Of a stretch of 62,577 nt of DNA, positions 6,007 to 62,577 are shown one piece after another. Below the pieces are notes generated by a model. That model worked only from the letters and a program-made list of their open reading frames with translations. It was not told the origin of the DNA and did not search any database. The stretch is from an uncultured Lachnospiraceae bacterium (GTDB taxonomy: Bacteria > Bacillota > Clostridia > Lachnospirales > Lachnospiraceae): NCBI GenBank assembly GCA_902784165.1, contig CACZTL010000004.1, positions 1-62,577 of the forward strand, read 5' to 3'. The translations under genes were made by a program, and so were the position numbers. Each line of letters begins with the position of its first letter. The first letter of the stretch is position 1.

Positions 6007-6076
6007 AGTGTGTCAGATGGGGACAGTCCCTTTGTGTCAGTTCTGACACAATGGGACTGTCCCCATCTGACACACC
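6007..6076. repeat. nested palindromic element, type A, full length
   Basis: AGTGTGTCAGATGGGGACAGTCCCTTTGTGTCAG-TT-CTGACACAATGGGACTGTCCCCATCTGACACAC. Lies between valS (stop 6086) and nadE (start 5986). Confidence 0.95.
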
Positions 6077-8753: not shown

Positions 8754-8823
8754 AGTGTGTCAGCCGGGGACAGTCCCTTTGTGTCAGTAATGACACAAAG
8801 GGACTGTCCCCGGCTGACACACT
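8754..8823. repeat. nested palindromic element, type A, full length
   Basis: Same consensus with spacers CC/GG. Lies 5 nt downstream of the CarD-like stop and 34 nt upstream of the valS start. Confidence 0.95.
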
Positions 8824-9361: not shown

Positions 9362-9427
9362 AGTGTGTCAATGGGAACGGTTCTACTGACACGCTGACAC
9401 AATGGTACTGTCACCATCTGACACACT
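9362..9427. repeat. composite copy: type B unit fused to a degenerate type A right arm
   Basis: AGTGTGTCAATGGGAACGGTTCTACTGACAC followed by GCTGACACAATGGTACTGTCACCATCTGACACACT. Lies in the 5' leader of the CarD-like gene. Confidence 0.85.
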
Positions 9428-11397: not shown

Positions 11398-11467
11398 AGT
11401 GTGTCAAACGGGGACAGTCCCTTTGTGTCAGAACTGACACAAAGGGACTGTCCCCATCTGACACACT
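11398..11467. repeat. nested palindromic element, type A, full length
   Basis: Lies between the rpsT terminator and the pepD start. The left end reads TGTCAA (TTGACA on the minus strand). Confidence 0.95.
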
Positions 11468-19428: not shown

Positions 19429-22005
19429 TTATAAAACCCCGGTATAAAAACCGGCGCTGTAGCTGTTCCCCTCTTGCTTATATCTTCCCTCACCAAAACG
19501 CTTAAGTAACTTACGTGTTTCTTTTGCATCCTCATCTGTCAGGTCGATACGAAACCTGTAAATGCCCGTGCTGCCTTTGATATCCTCTGTCAGACTGACC
19601 GGTGTATGGTCATAAATAACATTATTACAATATCTGCAATCCGGATAAGCAATGTACTCATTGCCTTTCTCATCGGAAAACTCAAAAGGCTTGTCGTCCC
19701 TCGTGCAGCACCCTGTCGTTTTTCTTACACAGTGTTCACTAAGCATAAGTACCATTCGTCCGTATCCTACAGCCTCAGTCTTTTCAGTCAGACCTATCTT
19801 ACTGATCTCATCGCTTTTAAGCTCAACCGGAGCCGTAAAAAGCTCATGATAAAACCCAAGGCTCCGGGTCAGACCCGCTAAAAACTCAGCGGCTCTGCTG
19901 TTATAAGCATACACCTGATAGTCAGAAACTATACTGTATTTTTTCCCGGTACCGCTGCTGCTGACAAAAAATGACAACGCACACAGTTCATCGGCGCTCC
20001 TGACTAAAAATCCGTCCGGATCAAGTTTTAAGGCAAGTTTTATATCCTCTTTAAAAAGCTTTATATGTCGCTCCCTGAAAAAATGCGGGAGCGTGACAAA
20101 AAGCTCATTGCCGCTATCTTTCAGTTTATTGAGAAGCGCTGTGTCATTTAAAACCTTCCTTAAAACACGCGTTGAAACATATATTCTTGACAGTACTGTC
20201 CCGCACTCAAGCACGGCTTTTAGCTGCTCGGATGTATTTACTGACGCGGAAAAAGCAAGCCTTTCGGGCACACTCCCGCTTATTATATCATTTTTTTCAT
20301 TAATAGCAAACAAAAAATTGCTTTTCACACTTTTTTTGTTGTTTTTATGCTTGCTCAATATTTCTTCAGTAAGCTTTAAAATCCCTTTTCGCCTGAGGTC
20401 ATTGACCCCCCCGTTAGATATAAATATCCCGTCATCAGCTTCTACAGTCACTTCTGAGCATGAAAAGTCGGTTCCGCCGAGCTTGCACAGCCTTTTTTTC
20501 AGATCCTCTTTTGTTACTCCGGCATTTTTTGCTTTCTGTACGGTTTCTCCTCTAACCTCTACCTGCGCTCCGCTTTCCGGGTGTAGTATTTTAAGTATCG
20601 CAGGCTTATCCTTTTTGACCGTAAGCTTCATCTTAATATTTATCCGGGAAAACCTCACCTTTAGTGTGTCAGAGCGGGGACAGTCCCTTTGTGTCAGTCC
20701 TGACACAAAGGGACTGTCCCCATCCTGACACACTGAGTCAACAAAGCTTGCGCGGATATATTCCTGCAAAGCGCTGTCATTCATACGGTACAGGATATCA
20801 TTTTTTCTTATTCCGTACTTGGACGGCAGGTTTATCTCAAACACCCCGCCTTTCTTTACAGCCTTGCCGCTTGTGAATGAATTGCCGGTAGTTATTTCAA
20901 ACACATCCCCCGGATTTATATCCTCAAGCGTCCGAAACCTGATATGACCTTTACGGTTTTCTTCAACTTTCAGCGCAGCAACTCCCCTGTTATTCGGACG
21001 ATCAAGAGACATAAGAGAAATCCCCTTTCTTCCGGTAAACATCCCTTCGCTAAATGATCCTCTGTTATAAAGCGCTGCAAGCTTTCTTTTGTCACGCTCA
21101 AGCTCTTCAGGATCAGCTTTAATCATACCATCGTAAAGTCTGTCCAAATATTTTCTGTAAATGTGGGTTACTCCCGCAGCATAATAAACATTTTTCATCC
21201 TTCCTTCTATTTTAAAGGATCTGACTCCTGCCGCCGCAATCTTAGGCAAGAGAGAAAGAGCCGCGATATCCCTTGTGCATAAAAGCCTGTTCTTATTCTT
21301 TCCGTCGTCAAACATAAGCCTGCATGGCTGTGCGCAGCTGCCGCGGTTGCCGCTTCTTTGCCCGTGCATAGACGAAAAAAGACACTGACCGGAATAAGAA
21401 TAACAAAGAGCCCCATGAACAAAAGCCTCCAGCTCTATCCCTGTATGATCATAAATACTTCTTATTTCTTCAAGTGTCATCTCTCGCGGAAGAACAACCC
21501 TGGAAACTCCGATCTCTTTCAGCTTGGCTGCAAAAAATCGAGTCATCACAGCCATCTGTGTGCTTGCATGAATATTAAGCTCAGGTATTTTCTCGCGAAT
21601 CAGACTCAAGCAGCCGTAGTCCTGTACTATAACGGCATCCAGCCCGGCGCTGTACAATTCCTTAAGAAAAGGTATTATCTTACCAATCTCTTCTTCTTTA
21701 AGTAATGTATTTACCGTCAAATAAATATTAGCGCCCCGCAGATGAGCGTAATCCAGCGCCTGAATTATCTCTTCAATGCTCAGATTACCTGCATACGCGC
21801 GTGCGCTAAAACTTTTTCCTCCGAGATAAACAGCATCTGCTCCGGCATTTATCACTGCTTTACAGATATCAAGACTGCCTGCCGGCGCAAGAAGCTCAAG
21901 CGTTCTCTTTTTGGCTGATGCTGCTGTTTCCGTTTCGGTTATTTTCATATTGTTTTTGTTTATTAACTTGTTTATCGAATTCTTTTTCTTTGTTGTCATA
22001 GGCAC
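19429..22005 (-). CDS. U32-family peptidase, long form, carrying an in-frame repeat insertion
   Basis: 858 aa. U32 signature EAFVHGALCYSYSGQCLFSS in the N-terminal half. Residues about 424-447 (SVCQDGDSPFVSGLTQRDCPRSDTL) are encoded by repeat copy 20663..20734. Start is GTG 22005 or ATG 21999 behind AAGGA. Confidence 0.85.
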   Translation of the reverse strand: MPMTTKKKNSINKLINKNNMKITETETAASAKKRTLELLAPAGSLDICKAVINAGADAVYLGGKSFSARAYAGNLSIEEIIQALDYAHLRGANIYLTVNTLLKEEEIGKIIPFLKELYSAGLDAVIVQDYGCLSLIREKIPELNIHASTQMAVMTRFFAAKLKEIGVSRVVLPREMTLEEIRSIYDHTGIELEAFVHGALCYSYSGQCLFSSMHGQRSGNRGSCAQPCRLMFDDGKNKNRLLCTRDIAALSLLPKIAAAGVRSFKIEGRMKNVYYAAGVTHIYRKYLDRLYDGMIKADPEELERDKRKLAALYNRGSFSEGMFTGRKGISLMSLDRPNNRGVAALKVEENRKGHIRFRTLEDINPGDVFEITTGNSFTSGKAVKKGGVFEINLPSKYGIRKNDILYRMNDSALQEYIRASFVDSVCQDGDSPFVSGLTQRDCPRSDTLKVRFSRINIKMKLTVKKDKPAILKILHPESGAQVEVRGETVQKAKNAGVTKEDLKKRLCKLGGTDFSCSEVTVEADDGIFISNGGVNDLRRKGILKLTEEILSKHKNNKKSVKSNFLFAINEKNDIISGSVPERLAFSASVNTSEQLKAVLECGTVLSRIYVSTRVLRKVLNDTALLNKLKDSGNELFVTLPHFFRERHIKLFKEDIKLALKLDPDGFLVRSADELCALSFFVSSSGTGKKYSIVSDYQVYAYNSRAAEFLAGLTRSLGFYHELFTAPVELKSDEISKIGLTEKTEAVGYGRMVLMLSEHCVRKTTGCCTRDDKPFEFSDEKGNEYIAYPDCRYCNNVIYDHTPVSLTEDIKGSTGIYRFRIDLTDEDAKETRKLLKRFGEGRYKQEGNSYSAGFYTGVL
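20663..20734. repeat. nested palindromic element, type A, full length, inside the U32 peptidase CDS
   Basis: AGTGTGTCAGAGCGGGGACAGTCCCTTTGTGTCAGTCCTGACACAAAGGGACTGTCCCCATCCTGACACACT. It is 72 bp (24 codons) and is read without a stop in the gene frame. Confidence 0.95.
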
Positions 22006-22375
22006 CGCCCGTCGTCCTTATTTCACTTTCGGGCTCTATATCAGGATTTTCTCCTCTCTTCAAGCGTGCAAGCTGCGTCTGAAGACCGGCAGCCTCATGC
22101 TTTATCTTATAAATATCCTGCTCTTTTTTTTCTATCTCACTTTTGAGTTCTTCATACTTTTGCTTCATCTTAAAATAGTCATCTGCTATATTAAGATGCA
22201 TAAGATACGCCCTGAGTACATCCGGCAGCTTATTAAAGCTGCTGTTTGCCTTAAGATCCCTTTCCTTGGCATTGATATAATTAGCAACCTTTTGCATATA
22301 TTCAACGCTCTCGTAGCCTGATATCTTATAGACCTTACCGTCTAAAAGAACCTCTAATTCTGTTTTTTCAGCCAT
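21896..22375 (-). CDS. zapA: cell division protein ZapA-like
   Basis: 159 aa. N-terminus LDGKVYKISGYESVEYMQKVANYIN followed by a coiled coil. The 3' ~110 nt overlap the U32 ORF. Confidence 0.65.
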   Translation of the reverse strand: MAEKTELEVLLDGKVYKISGYESVEYMQKVANYINAKERDLKANSSFNKLPDVLRAYLMHLNIADDYFKMKQKYEELKSEIEKKEQDIYKIKHEAAGLQTQLARLKRGENPDIEPESEIRTTGGAYDNKEKEFDKQVNKQKQYENNRNGNSSISQKENA

Positions 22376-26285: not shown

Positions 26286-26355
26286 AGTGTGTCAGACGGG
26301 GACAGTCCCTTTGTGTCAGGTCTGACACAAAGGGACTGTCCCCGTCTGACACACT
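26286..26355. repeat. nested palindromic element, type A, full length
   Basis: Perfect arms with spacers AC/GT. Lies 18 nt downstream of the cysteine desulfurase stop and upstream of thiI. Confidence 0.95.
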
Positions 26356-27574: not shown

Positions 27575-27608
27575 GGTGTTTCAATGAGGACGGTTCTACT
27601 GTCACACT
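27575..27608 (+). repeat. type B short element (degenerate)
   Basis: GGTGTTTCAATGAGGACGGTTCTACTGTCACACT, between the rsmE stop and the cysteine desulfurase start. Confidence 0.8.
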
Positions 27609-30794: not shown

Positions 30795-30827
30795 AGTGTG
30801 TCAGCAGATCCGTCCCCGTTGACACAT
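30795..30827 (-). repeat. type B short element (reverse orientation)
   Basis: AGTGTGTCAGCAGATCCGTCCCCGTTGACACAT, 5 nt from the scpB stop codon. Confidence 0.88.
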
Positions 30828-32415: not shown

Positions 32416-32485
32416 AGTGTGTCAAACGGGGACAGTCCCTTTGTGTCAGTCCTGACACAAAGGGACTGTCCCCATTTGACACACT
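32416..32485. repeat. nested palindromic element, type A, full length
   Basis: Upstream of scpA. Both termini read TTGACA outward. Confidence 0.95.
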
Positions 32486-32513: not shown

Positions 32514-32530
32514 CGACACACTTTGACACT
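32514..32530. repeat. tandem right-end fragments of the element
   Basis: CGACACACTTTGACACT. The TTGACA within it is the -35 of the candidate sRNA promoter. Confidence 0.55.
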
Positions 32531-32551
32531 TATATAATTTCATAGTATAAT
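32523..32551 (+). promoter_or_regulatory. consensus sigma-A promoter (TTGACA-17-TATAAT) on the plus strand
   Basis: TTGACA at 32523..32528, a 17-nt spacer, TATAAT at 32546..32551. No plus-strand CDS lies downstream. Confidence 0.65.
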
Positions 32552-32557
32552 ATATAC

Positions 32558-32741
32558 AAATCTGGAATGTTCGCCAGCCCGCATATTTTGATCCGACATA
32601 TTTGATACGGGACACCTATATCGAACAGTCGGATGTCAGGCCGTCATTCGAGCGGAAGACTGACGATTGCTCTGCGGAGACCCACCTGGCCGTTTGCCGG
32701 GAGTCATTCATGCGGACAACGGCATTCCGGATCTTTTTTTA
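32558..32741 (+). ncRNA. candidate ~180-nt structured small RNA, class unknown
   Basis: Consensus promoter (TTGACA-17-TATAAT) ends at 32551. A GC-richer segment follows with long-range pairing 32560-32569/32723-32732 and 32579-32584/32710-32715. It also contains the extended hairpin 32591-32634 and ends in a hairpin plus T7 run. No plausible ORF or RBS. Confidence 0.5.
32697..32740 (+). terminator. terminator of the candidate sRNA
   Basis: Plus strand: CCGGG...AUGC-ggacaacg-GCAU-UCCGG, then AUC and U7. Converges on the yihY-like stop codon. Confidence 0.55.
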
Positions 32742-37656: not shown

Positions 37657-37707
37657 GTGTTATATCCTCCCTACATTTTTCCTCTTTAAATCCGTTAATA
37701 TTTATAA

Positions 37708-37770
37708 TTAACTGTAGTGTGTCAGACGGGGACACACTTGGTCTGTCCCCGTCTGACACACTACAGTTAA
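37708..37770. repeat. internally deleted type A derivative; perfect 27-bp arms extend 8 nt into the flanks
   Basis: TTAACTGTAGTGTGTCAGACGGGGACA-cacttggtc-TGTCCCCGTCTGACACACTACAGTTAA. The element core is 37716..37762. Confidence 0.93.
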
Positions 37771-37870
37771 TGCCAAATGTTAACAAAAATCCTTCTCAAG
37801 TAATAGCGCAACACAAAATCACGCAATAACACAACATATATTGTATACAAAAAGCTTTAAAAAATCAACT

Positions 37871-37898
37871 AAAAAAAGAGACCGACTTAGGTCTCTTT
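37871..37898 (-). terminator. intrinsic terminator after tmRNA
   Basis: Minus strand: AGAGACC-UAAGUC-GGUCUCU followed by U7. Confidence 0.8.
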
Positions 37899-37900
37899 AG

Positions 37901-38288
37901 TGGAGTAGACGAGAATCGAACTCGTGTCCGGAAAACGCTCCGTACGGTCTTCTACTATCATAGTTGATCATTTGCTCAAAGCTGTTTAAACCACATTCCG
38001 GGAATCAACGCCGGCACATGGCCGAGCCCTGTAATATCGCCCGCCGGCCACAAGACATCACCGTCGGGAGTACCCCGCAAAATATAAGACCCGGACTCCG
38101 ATCCTGCGGGCAAACCGGACCGGACCGCCGTTTATAGAAGAAACGGCCTTTGGTTGCTGCTTAACCTAAATTAGGCAGCAAGCGCTAAATCATAATCGTC
38201 TTCAGCGTTTAATTTAAAAGAACGTTTAACGCACGCCTGCGGATAGCTTCTCCGTCTTTACATTCCCCGTCGAAACCTTTACTACCCC
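37901..38288 (-). ncRNA. ssrA: tmRNA (ssrA)
   Basis: The 5' GGGGTAG pairs with 3' CTACTCC, including the G3:U alanine identity pair. T-arm ACGAGTTCGATTCTCGT. Internal tag frame GCT GAA GAC GAT TAT GAT TTA GCG CTT GCT GCC TAA = AEDDYDLALAA. CCA is not encoded. Confidence 0.93.
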
Positions 38289-38290
38289 AT

Positions 38291-38318
38291 GTGTGTGTCA
38301 GTCCCCATCTGACACACT
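38291..38318. repeat. minimal derivative (terminal modules only)
   Basis: GTGTGTGTCAG-TCCCCAT-CTGACACACT. Lies between the guaB stop (38343) and the tmRNA 5' end (38288). Confidence 0.85.
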
Positions 38319-40911: not shown

Positions 40912-40940
40912 TAATTACCATTCAGCCATTAGTGTGTCAA
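40912..40940 (-). promoter_or_regulatory. promoter whose -35 lies inside a repeat copy (TTGACA-17-TGgTAATTA)
   Basis: The -35 at 40935..40940 is the terminal module of element 40931..40965. The extended -10 is at 40912..40920. It would drive gene 40317..40859. Confidence 0.5.
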
Positions 40941-40965
40941 ACAGGGACAGTCCCTTTGACACACT
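40931..40965. repeat. short derivative: terminal modules plus a single GGGACAGTCCC core
   Basis: AGTGTGTCAAACAGGGACAGTCCCTTTGACACACT, upstream of gene 40317..40859. Confidence 0.9.
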
Positions 40966-52408: not shown

Positions 52409-52437
52409 AGTGTATCAAAGGGTCGTTAGTGTGTCAA
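52409..52437 (-). promoter_or_regulatory. possible hisF promoter built from repeat termini (TTGACA-17-TACACT)
   Basis: The -35 at 52432..52437 is inside the type B copy. The -10 at 52409..52414 is inside the adjacent solo end fragment. Confidence 0.4.
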
Positions 52438-52461
52438 AGGGGACGGTTCTGCTGACACACT
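52428..52461 (+). repeat. type B short element
   Basis: AGTGTGTCAAAGGGGACGGTTCTGCTGACACACT, 11 nt from the mtaB stop. A solo left-end fragment AGTGTATCAAAGGG lies at 52409..52422. Confidence 0.9.
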
Positions 52462-53869: not shown

Positions 53870-53938
53870 AGTGTGTCAGAACGGGGACAGTCCCTTTGTG
53901 TCAACGTGACACAAAGGGACTGTCCCCGTTCTGACACT
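53870..53938. repeat. nested palindromic element, type A, full length (2-nt terminal deletion)
   Basis: Spacers AAC/GTT and loop ACG. Lies between the trpB2 terminator and the mtaB start. Confidence 0.93.
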
Positions 53939-53948
53939 ATAACCGGGC

Positions 53949-56239: not shown

Positions 56240-56272
56240 AGTATGTCAACGGGAACTGTTCTACTGACACAC
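56240..56272 (+). repeat. type B short element
   Basis: AGTATGTCAACGGGAACTGTTCTACTGACACAC, between the ferredoxin gene and tRNA-Gly. Confidence 0.85.
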
Positions 56273-62509: not shown

Positions 62510-62577
62510 AGTGTGTCAGATGGGGACAGTCCCTTTGTGTCAGTGCTGACACAAAGGGACTGTCCCCATTTGACACA
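62510..62577. repeat. nested palindromic element, type A, cut by the window edge
   Basis: AGTGTGTCAGATGGGGACAGTCCCTTTGTGTCAGTGCTGACACAAAGGGACTGTCCCCATTTGACACA, upstream of ilvD. Confidence 0.9.

Follow-up and report, generated by a model that had tools for sequence, protein, structure and literature searches.

Introduction

Palindromic repeats within coding sequences are known from several bacterial groups. Di Nocera et al. (2013, PMC3733652) described repetitive extragenic palindromic (REP) elements located inside open reading frames (ORFs) in several phyla, and over half of these intragenic REPs consist of dimers or groups, with a coding length of 20 to 30 amino acids. There are species in which just one ORF is affected, and the inserts were suggested to reside in flexible linkers or loops. 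The same survey reports a terminal GTAG (or CGTC) tetranucleotide in >90% of the family members and REPtrons, in which the gene of the REP-associated tyrosine transposase (RAYT, IS200/IS605-like) is flanked by the repeats. Rickettsia palindromic elements (RPEs; Ogata et al. 2000, summarised in PMC10969869) are palindromic selfish DNA located in frame in Rickettsia housekeeping genes, translated and compatible with the protein fold. Here we analyse a palindromic repeat from a 62,577-nt stretch of DNA of an uncultured Lachnospiraceae bacterium (contig CACZTL010000004.1, assembly GCA_902784165.1; the whole stretch is referred to below as the window), in which a full-length copy of an otherwise intergenic palindrome lies in frame within the gene of a long U32-family protein.

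The family found in the window has the broad-sense features of REP-like elements: short imperfect palindromes in high copy number, extragenic and close to ORF ends, arranged as singletons, dimers and composites. It shares with the GTAG/CGTC REPs (PMC3733652) the combination of stem-loop units with dimer-like palindromes, the abundance, the mostly extragenic location near ORF ends and the rarity of intra-ORF copies. It differs from them in having no conserved GTAG or CGTC tag and in its long form, which is one continuous 33-bp palindrome instead of two separately folding REPs. The REP/BIME (bacterial interspersed mosaic element) system of E. coli is similar in that imperfect palindromes of 30-40 nt occur between co-transcribed genes, build compound forms, produce no target-site duplication and give stable RNA hairpins; however, the E. 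coli elements bear the GTAG tag and owe their mobility to RAYT (TnpA-REP), and neither feature is seen here. The MITEs (miniature transposable elements with inverted repeats) found in Firmicutes (RUP, BOX and SPRITE in S. pneumoniae, bcr1 in B. cereus, EFAR in enterococci; PMC3733652, PMC10969869) are also small, non-autonomous, mostly intergenic and hairpin-forming, but they consist of terminal inverted repeats around a non-palindromic body and are accompanied by target-site duplications, whereas the present elements are palindromic throughout, with a 2-nt centre.

The likeness to RPEs lies in the presence of palindromic selfish DNA in frame in a housekeeping gene, presumably translated and compatible with the fold. 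RPEs are unrelated in sequence, size and host: they are ~100-150 bp long, occupy dozens of genes per genome, and in some families nearly half of the copies are genic, whereas our element is 72 bp long and one of the 17 members in the window is mid-genic. The frequent in-frame colonisation typical of RPEs is not seen here, as the copy in the U32-family gene stands alone among ~30 copies inspected. A preliminary description of this DNA, made from the sequence alone, cited Rickettsia as the precedent for in-frame tolerance of such elements; this is correct (PMC10969869), although the precedent is not restricted to Rickettsia, given the intragenic REP dimers of several phyla (PMC3733652). Targeted searches of the accessible literature returned no report of such repeats in Lachnospiraceae or Clostridia, and the survey PMC3733652 does not mention Firmicutes or Clostridia. 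Apparently, the repeat family is undescribed and the host group is new, while translated intragenic palindromes as such are already known.

The intragenic copy

The gene and the parts of the copy are as follows (positions in the window).

19429-22005, minus strand: host gene, encoding a long U32-family protein (Peptidase_U32, DUF3656 and a second C-terminal alpha/beta module)
20663-20734, minus strand: genic repeat copy, a 72-bp nested palindrome read as 24 additional residues (V406-L429 of P0001, the 839-aa protein)
20664-20672: outer arm A, GTGTGTCAG, pairing with 20725-20733
20673-20675: left spacer AGC, 3 nt against 2 nt in canonical copies, without DNA-level complementarity to the right spacer ATC
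20676-20697: inner arm GGGGACAGTCCCTTTGTGTCAG, 0 mismatches against the family consensus
20698-20699: loop TC, 2 nt
20700-20721: inner arm, reverse complement (CTGACACAAAGGGACTGTCCCC), 0 mismatches against the family consensus
20722-20724: right spacer ATC, 3 nt
20725-20733: outer arm A', CTGACACAC

The segment 20663-20734 is thus laid out as A-GTGTGTCAG-AGC-GGGGACAGTCCCTTTGTGTCAG-TC-CTGACACAAAGGGACTGTCCCC-ATC-CTGACACAC-T, with 35-nt arms that are 91% complementary around a 2-nt centre, both 22-nt inner arms being exactly the family consensus. The DNA itself, independent assemblies, orthologues, in-silico excision, selection and predicted structure all support the embedding of a full-length copy of the intergenic repeat in this gene, in frame and over 24 codons. 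The ORF 19429..22005 runs uninterrupted across the copy on the minus strand; its translation reads ...FVDSVCQDGDSPFVSGLTQRDCPRSDTLKVRFSRINIKMKLTVKKDKPAILKIL..., includes EAFVHGALCYSYSGQCLFSS and holds exactly the insert peptide SVCQDGDSPFVSGLTQRDCPRSDTL of the preliminary description, together with both flanking landmarks. The two extra-base spacers, AGC and ATC, are indeed non-complementary, as had been noted. The peptide DGDSPFVSGLTQR, which had been put forward as a proteomics target, is not a full tryptic peptide; the full tryptic peptide of the insert is ASFVDSVCQDGDSPFVSGLTQR, followed by DCPR and SDTLK.

The ORF comprises 858 codons from a GTG (22005) and 839 from the ATG at 21948, which is the start used by gene callers (P0001) and likely the start of the gene.

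Membership of the copy in a repeat family is supported by a search for the inner 22-mer with up to 3 mismatches, which gave 17 matches in the window and 0 in each of 100 dinucleotide-preserving shuffles. The family has at least 17 members in the window, and 16 of the 17 are intergenic though 92% of the window is genic (binomial P = 2e-17).

Orthologues, empty site and allelic states

In a MAFFT alignment of 20 homologues, all orthologues at ≤57% identity are devoid of the segment, which leaves a gap of ~27 columns; small indels occur in this region in other orthologues too. When the 72 bp are excised, a TCA codon is re-formed and the protein reads FVDS|KVRF, which matches FIS|KNKK of the syntenic insert-free orthologue (L014), so the palindrome boundaries coincide with a conserved Ser|Lys junction. 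The clean 24-residue gap that had been predicted for orthologues was therefore recovered in part: the exact figure of 24 is given by in-silico excision, while the alignment gap is wider and the closest relative retains a remnant. Homologous residues without repeat DNA, named earlier as the finding that would speak against an insertion, were not encountered, because the residues present in the closest relative are encoded by a remnant of the same repeat.

These data bear on the possibility that the insert is native protein sequence and its likeness to the repeat is secondary. The segment would be translated under this view too, and nothing more speaks for it. Its DNA, however, matches a family of at least 17 members with both arms at 100%, no orthologue at ≤57% identity has the insert, its excision restores a Pfam domain, and it evolves nearly neutrally (see below); we find a native origin hardly credible.

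The locus was found in several further assemblies, which represent different allelic states. In L003 (ENA ERZ1029111) the U32-family gene is 100% identical to that of the window, element included. L013 (ERZ28019087), with 98.3% nucleotide identity, carries the same full copy with the same two spacers and one T-to-G change in an arm, which is uncompensated although a compensating change would be synonymous; compensatory covariation of the arms was looked for and is rejected, since this one arm substitution in L013 has no matching change in the other arm. L001 and L002, at 93.5% nucleotide identity (the cluster also contains P0139 and P0143), have AGCGTGTCAGA-AAAAGGACTGTTCCGATTCTGACACACTAAA at the same site. 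Their remnant keeps the same right junction, the 3-nt right spacer and a part of the right inner arm; relative to the copy in the window it lacks 39 bp (13 codons), and it is still in frame. The L001 and L002 assemblies are 99.96% identical to each other in the U32-family gene.

Could the genic copy be an artefact, either a mis-assembled palindrome or two genes annotated as one? Palindromes do upset assemblers: a run of N lies inside a repeat copy in L001, and many contigs end in copies. Nevertheless, three independent assemblies from different samples carry the same 72 bp in the same place, the remnant was recovered in further independent assemblies, all orthologues are single proteins of ~800 aa, and both halves of the gene are constrained. 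An artefact is, in our opinion, extremely improbable.

The long form in the window and the shorter form in the sister lineage might also be independent insertions into a hot spot. Short and truncated family members do exist, and with its perfect arms the window copy looks young. Yet both lineages have the identical right-hand junction CTGACACACTAAA and the unusual 3-nt right spacer, the remnant contains the inner-arm segment AAAGGACTGTTCC of long copies, which short units lack, and a similar internal deletion is seen in an intergenic copy; repeated insertion is thus very unlikely. The simplest history is one insertion before the split of the three sampled lineages, followed by an in-frame internal deletion in one of them.

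Length and reading frame

Copy lengths were measured between the outer-arm landmarks GTGTGTCA/TGACACAC, and 2 nt are to be added when the flanking A/T is counted. The genic copy has 70 nt against 68 nt in five intergenic copies of the window, which agrees with the 72 and 70 bp (flanking A/T included) given in the preliminary description; the extra length is due to the two spacers being 3 nt long, not 2. In the window and the other loci together, 68 nt was found in nine copies, 69 nt in two and 70 nt in three, the latter being the one genic locus (in the window and in L013) and a copy in L007 with complementary TTA/TAA spacers. The intergenic copy at 53871 likewise has 3-nt spacers. Since the 3+3-nt arrangement is also seen intergenically (53871; L007), the genic geometry is a natural variant that needs no post-insertion repair.

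In canonical copies, two frames are open on each strand, and the third contains both TGA triplets. This was checked in the copy at 6008 (6007 in the preliminary description), where two frames had rightly been called open inside the element. The genic copy has one open frame per strand, its two TGAs being 25 nt apart and in different frames. The peptide of the genic copy combines stretches from three canonical frames (VCQ | GDSPFVSGLTQRDCP | SDTL), with the two longer spacers at the joins. A canonical copy, of 70 bp with A/T, would shift the frame of any gene it entered and cannot preserve the reading frame; the 72-bp variant, in one frame of three, is the only one that can survive in a gene, which is why the sole genic copy is an odd-length one.

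Position of the insert in the protein and selection

Pfam profiles recognise Peptidase_U32 (232 bits) and DUF3656 (65.6-65.7 bits) in the host protein, both above the gathering score. The DUF3656 match in P0001 starts only at profile position 23 (23-109, ~65.6 bits); when the 24 residues are excised in silico, it becomes contiguous over positions 1-109 and reaches 75.2 bits, and in insert-free orthologues positions 1-108 are matched contiguously. The point of insertion in DUF3656 falls between the helix at its N-terminus (profile positions 1-22) and the beta-sheet. Because the domain itself is split, the insert does not occupy an inter-domain linker, as had initially been assumed; in Pfam terms it falls within DUF3656.

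An AlphaFold2 model of the host protein (21-sequence alignment, mean pLDDT 77, where pLDDT is the predicted local distance difference test score; predicted template modelling score, pTM, 0.80) presents residues 407-429 as coil with pLDDT <50, located between the helix 392-403 and the strand 436-444. The coil fits a tolerated loop, which is probably disordered and may lie at the surface. A PDB sequence search gave no match, and a PDB fold search gave generic TIM-barrel matches only, including 5d88 (U32 Mk0906), none of which covers the DUF3656 site.

The ratio of nonsynonymous to synonymous substitutions (omega, Nei-Gojobori) between the window and L001 is 0.197 for the whole gene, 0.161 for its N-terminal half and 0.202 for its C-terminal half, compared with ~0.88 for the 18 alignable codons in and around the insert. 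Both halves of the gene are under purifying selection, while the insert drifts.

The host gene shows further variation and a conserved neighbourhood. Window and L013 alleles differ at 42 sites, 11 of which fall within ~75 nt (gene nt 658-731 of 2520, ~21218-21291 in the window), and synonymous divergence (dS) between the window and L001 is 0.28 in the N-terminal half against 0.105 in the C-terminal half; the clustering and the uneven dS suggest recombination patches within the gene. A zapA-like ORF (21896-22375, minus strand) overlaps the 5' end of the U32-family ORF, by 53 nt if the latter starts at the ATG (21948) and by 110 nt if it starts at the GTG (22005). In the 57%-identity relative L014, zapA, the U32-family gene, ftsW/spoVE and the transpeptidase gene follow one another in the same order.

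The RNA hairpin

In the sense-strand RNA, the genic copy forms a stem of 33 bp (-63.6 kcal/mol, z = -9.8), compared with -70.4 kcal/mol for a canonical copy and -18.6 kcal/mol for the remnant of the sister lineage. It might be supposed that the genic hairpin functions at the RNA level as a regulator of the U32-family gene, for example as an RNase III site or as a ribosome pause between the catalytic module at the N-terminus and the remainder of the protein. The stability of the fold and the perfection of both arms in the window and in L003 are in favour of such a role; REP hairpins are known to affect mRNA stability (PMC3733652), and RNase III is encoded in this genome (48182-48922), which makes processing of the hairpin conceivable. 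On the other hand, the sister lineage has lost the hairpin while its gene is equally constrained, and L013 has an uncompensated arm mutation for which synonymous compensation was possible; both argue against selection for hairpin processing. The perfect arms are within chance expectation, and the missing T-tract after the stem speaks against an intrinsic terminator. We therefore consider a function of the RNA unlikely.

Proposed origin of the insert

We believe it highly probable that a copy of a REP-like repeat, in its 3+3-spacer variant, was inserted long ago into the U32-family gene and has been kept as a nearly neutral loop of 24 residues. The repeats would be a selfish or structural REP-like family, in which 32-nt stem-loop units and 68-70-nt compound palindromes are made of the same boxes, in a rumen or gut bacterium belonging to, or close to, Lachnospiraceae. 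Its members normally occupy short spacers between co-directional housekeeping genes. One copy of the rarer variant of 72 bp (with A/T) and 3-nt spacers entered the long U32-family gene exactly between the conserved Ser and Lys codons, in the loop after the first DUF3656 helix. The ORF survived since the length of this variant is a multiple of three and its sole stop-free frame is that of the gene, and the element would then have been translated as a 24-residue loop. The insertion is old and preceded the split of the three sampled lineages, the most divergent of which lost the hairpin by an internal in-frame deletion, with 11-13 residues left. We regard the insert as a passenger that is tolerated and nearly neutral rather than adaptive.

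Several points weigh against this reconstruction. No empty-site allele was found among close relatives, and the nearest insert-free orthologue is only 57% identical, so that the pre-insertion DNA and any target-site duplication are unreadable. Both 22-nt arms are perfect in the window lineage despite ~3% lineage divergence; chance accounts for this with a probability of roughly P = 0.2, and the perfect arms are allowed by chance but also by gene conversion or by selection on the hairpin. No transposase domain was detected in the window ORFs scanned (62.6 kb), and the window holds no RAYT/IS200-type gene. Low pLDDT is expected at zero alignment depth (only P0002 covers a part of the insert) and is weak evidence of disorder, and the omega of ~0.9 for the insert is based on 18 codons. 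We infer translation of the 24 residues indirectly, from the preservation of the ORF and from selection, and likewise infer the neutrality of the insert, its surface exposure and the mode of movement of the repeat.

More far-reaching assumptions may be made on the same data. The 3+3-nt-spacer variant could represent a coding-competent subfamily that repeatedly seeds translated loops in Lachnospiraceae, as a Gram-positive counterpart of RPEs, and/or the hairpin could have been exapted for post-transcriptional control (RNase III site, ribosome pause). We rate this quite unlikely.

The repeat family in the window

The family comprises eight long copies (6008, 8755, 11399, 20664, 26287, 32417, 53871 and 62511) and nine members that are shorter or composite and are based on the outer arms GTGTGTCA/TGACACAC (six 32-nt units, mini forms of 25, 33 and 45 nt, and the composite 9363-9426). 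Besides the genic copy, they are the following.

6008-6075: canonical 68-nt copy, intergenic, between valS-like and nadE-like genes
8755-8822: canonical 68-nt copy, intergenic
11399-11466: canonical 68-nt copy, intergenic
26287-26354: canonical 68-nt copy, intergenic, with the aminotransferase and thiI genes on either side, present in the sister lineage too
32417-32484: canonical 68-nt copy, intergenic, just upstream of the 6S RNA gene
53871-53939: 69-nt variant with complementary 3-nt spacers AAC/GTT, intergenic
62511-62577: full-length copy cut by the window end
9363-9426: composite in which half of a long copy is joined with a short unit, located upstream of the real ATG (~9322) of a CarD-like gene
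37717-37761: short form of 45 nt, contained in an extended palindrome of 91 nt (37694-37784), on the downstream side of the tmRNA gene
2766-2797: short unit of 32 nt with outer arms and a loop that is asymmetric (GGGRACGGTTCTRC type), intergenic
27576-27607, 30796-30827, 52429-52460 and 56241-56272: further 32-nt units of the GGGRACGGTTCTRC type, all intergenic
38293-38317 and 40932-40964: related mini forms, both intergenic

The distance from intergenic members to the adjacent ORFs is typically 6-35 nt, the genes on both sides being co-directional housekeeping genes, and a tandem arrangement is found at 52410-52460. The short 32-nt units have stems of 8-9 bp, while the compound 68-70-nt forms fold at -64 to -70 kcal/mol. 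The loop of the short units (2766, 9363, 27576, 30796, 52429 and 56241) is the asymmetric GGGRACGGTTCTRC, compared with the self-complementary GGGGACAGTCCC box of the long copies, which indicates that the short units are oriented and form a second subfamily. No Rfam family matches the element.

Copy ends read NWAG (GTAG, CTAG, TTAG, AAAG, TAAG), and a conserved GTAG tag is rejected since this tetranucleotide occurs at only ~5 of 30 ends. About half of the copies are flanked by TA...TA, which is itself palindromic, and the rest by AAA...TTT, which prolongs the inverted repeat and does not constitute a direct repeat; no target-site duplication flanks the genic copy, and a consistent duplication is not supported by the copy flanks. 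The copies do not qualify as intrinsic terminators, as no T-tract follows the stem and none was flagged. No insertion sequence was found in the window or in the fetched loci. As to the mode of movement, our guess is a trans-acting enzyme that recognises hairpins, such as a RAYT/IS200-type transposase.

Two copies or groups of copies are adjacent to genes of stable RNAs. The 6S RNA gene (32556-32737, plus strand) has a promoter-like site with a perfect match to TTGACA-17-TATAAT at 32523-32551; the end of a full repeat copy lies 39 nt upstream of this site, and its TTTGACACAC terminus adds another TTGACA hexamer (32476), so that repeat termini of the TTGACACAC variant could donate -35 boxes. The tmRNA gene (37898-38288, minus strand) is bracketed by the 25-nt mini form 38293-38317, located 5 nt from its 5' end, and by the 45-nt form 37717-37761 downstream.

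The copy between the aminotransferase and thiI genes contains a scaffold N-run in L001 (1586-1663) and has a 50-nt internal deletion with AGGG microhomology in L002 (~1690-1720). The palindromes are deletion-prone, assembler-hostile or both.

Distribution beyond the window

An exact core scan revealed full 68-nt copies at 2 loci, in two species-representative metagenome-assembled genomes (Lachnospira sp. UBA4346 and Lachnospiraceae bacterium RUG11815), and copies in 7 short AUXO metagenome contigs; the same scan of viral contigs found no copies, and plasmid records contain no match to the repeat. This yield is too small for a genome-wide test of genic lengths modulo 3, which had been proposed in the preliminary description. 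All copies examined in other loci are intergenic, and the open stretches across them turned out to be artefacts, either antisense or upstream. A second mid-protein copy was not found among the ~30 copies inspected, and the database searches for more had poor sensitivity.

The window contains the sporulation genes for Spore_YtfJ, an FtsW/SpoVE-family protein and a transpeptidase, which fits an endospore-forming member of Clostridia. L005 offers paralogues only of the window genes, at 34% identity. In the fully syntenic L014/L015 (bovine metagenome, U32 protein 57% identical), neither family members nor long inverted repeats are present in 22 kb, so the repeat family expanded after those lineages split.

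Searches at the protein level gave a similar picture. Concatenated element peptides retrieved small ORFs only from a database of 5.8 billion proteins and missed P0001 despite an exact stretch of 25 residues in a 73-aa query, so this word-indexed search is uninformative for long proteins; a 161-residue fragment query around the insert gave no match, not even P0001, and word-index search cannot retrieve long proteins from fragment queries. A profile of element peptides gave 11 matches among 1.84 billion representative proteins, all of ≤172 aa and none with a mid-protein insert, in a library that holds one protein per 50%-identity cluster, where insert-bearing alleles can be hidden by insert-free representatives. 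The small-protein matches are spurious ORFs over intergenic copies, an N-terminal over-extension (P0131) and a cluster of partial copies (P0133). "Proteins" of 41-172 aa in public collections (P0121-P0135) are translations of the repeat or of repeat clusters in open frames, and are almost certainly spurious gene calls. In P0130 (166 aa), a fragment of an ABC-F-type ATPase, the C-terminus reads through a repeat copy into apparent nonsense sequence; this is possibly a 3'-end fusion made by the same repeat family in another genome.

Significance

The known biology of such elements is unchanged by the present case. For the bacteria concerned, the repeat marks a Lachnospiraceae-related lineage, breaks or gaps metagenome assemblies, and yields spurious small ORF calls and terminal fusions in databases. 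The genic locus offers a natural example of selfish palindromic DNA adding a loop to a conserved enzyme, in which three allelic states may be compared (the full hairpin, the point-mutated hairpin and the remnant deleted in frame) together with an insert-free syntenic outgroup. It makes a sieve visible: only the rare length variant that is a multiple of three, with its single open frame matching that of the gene, persists within the gene.

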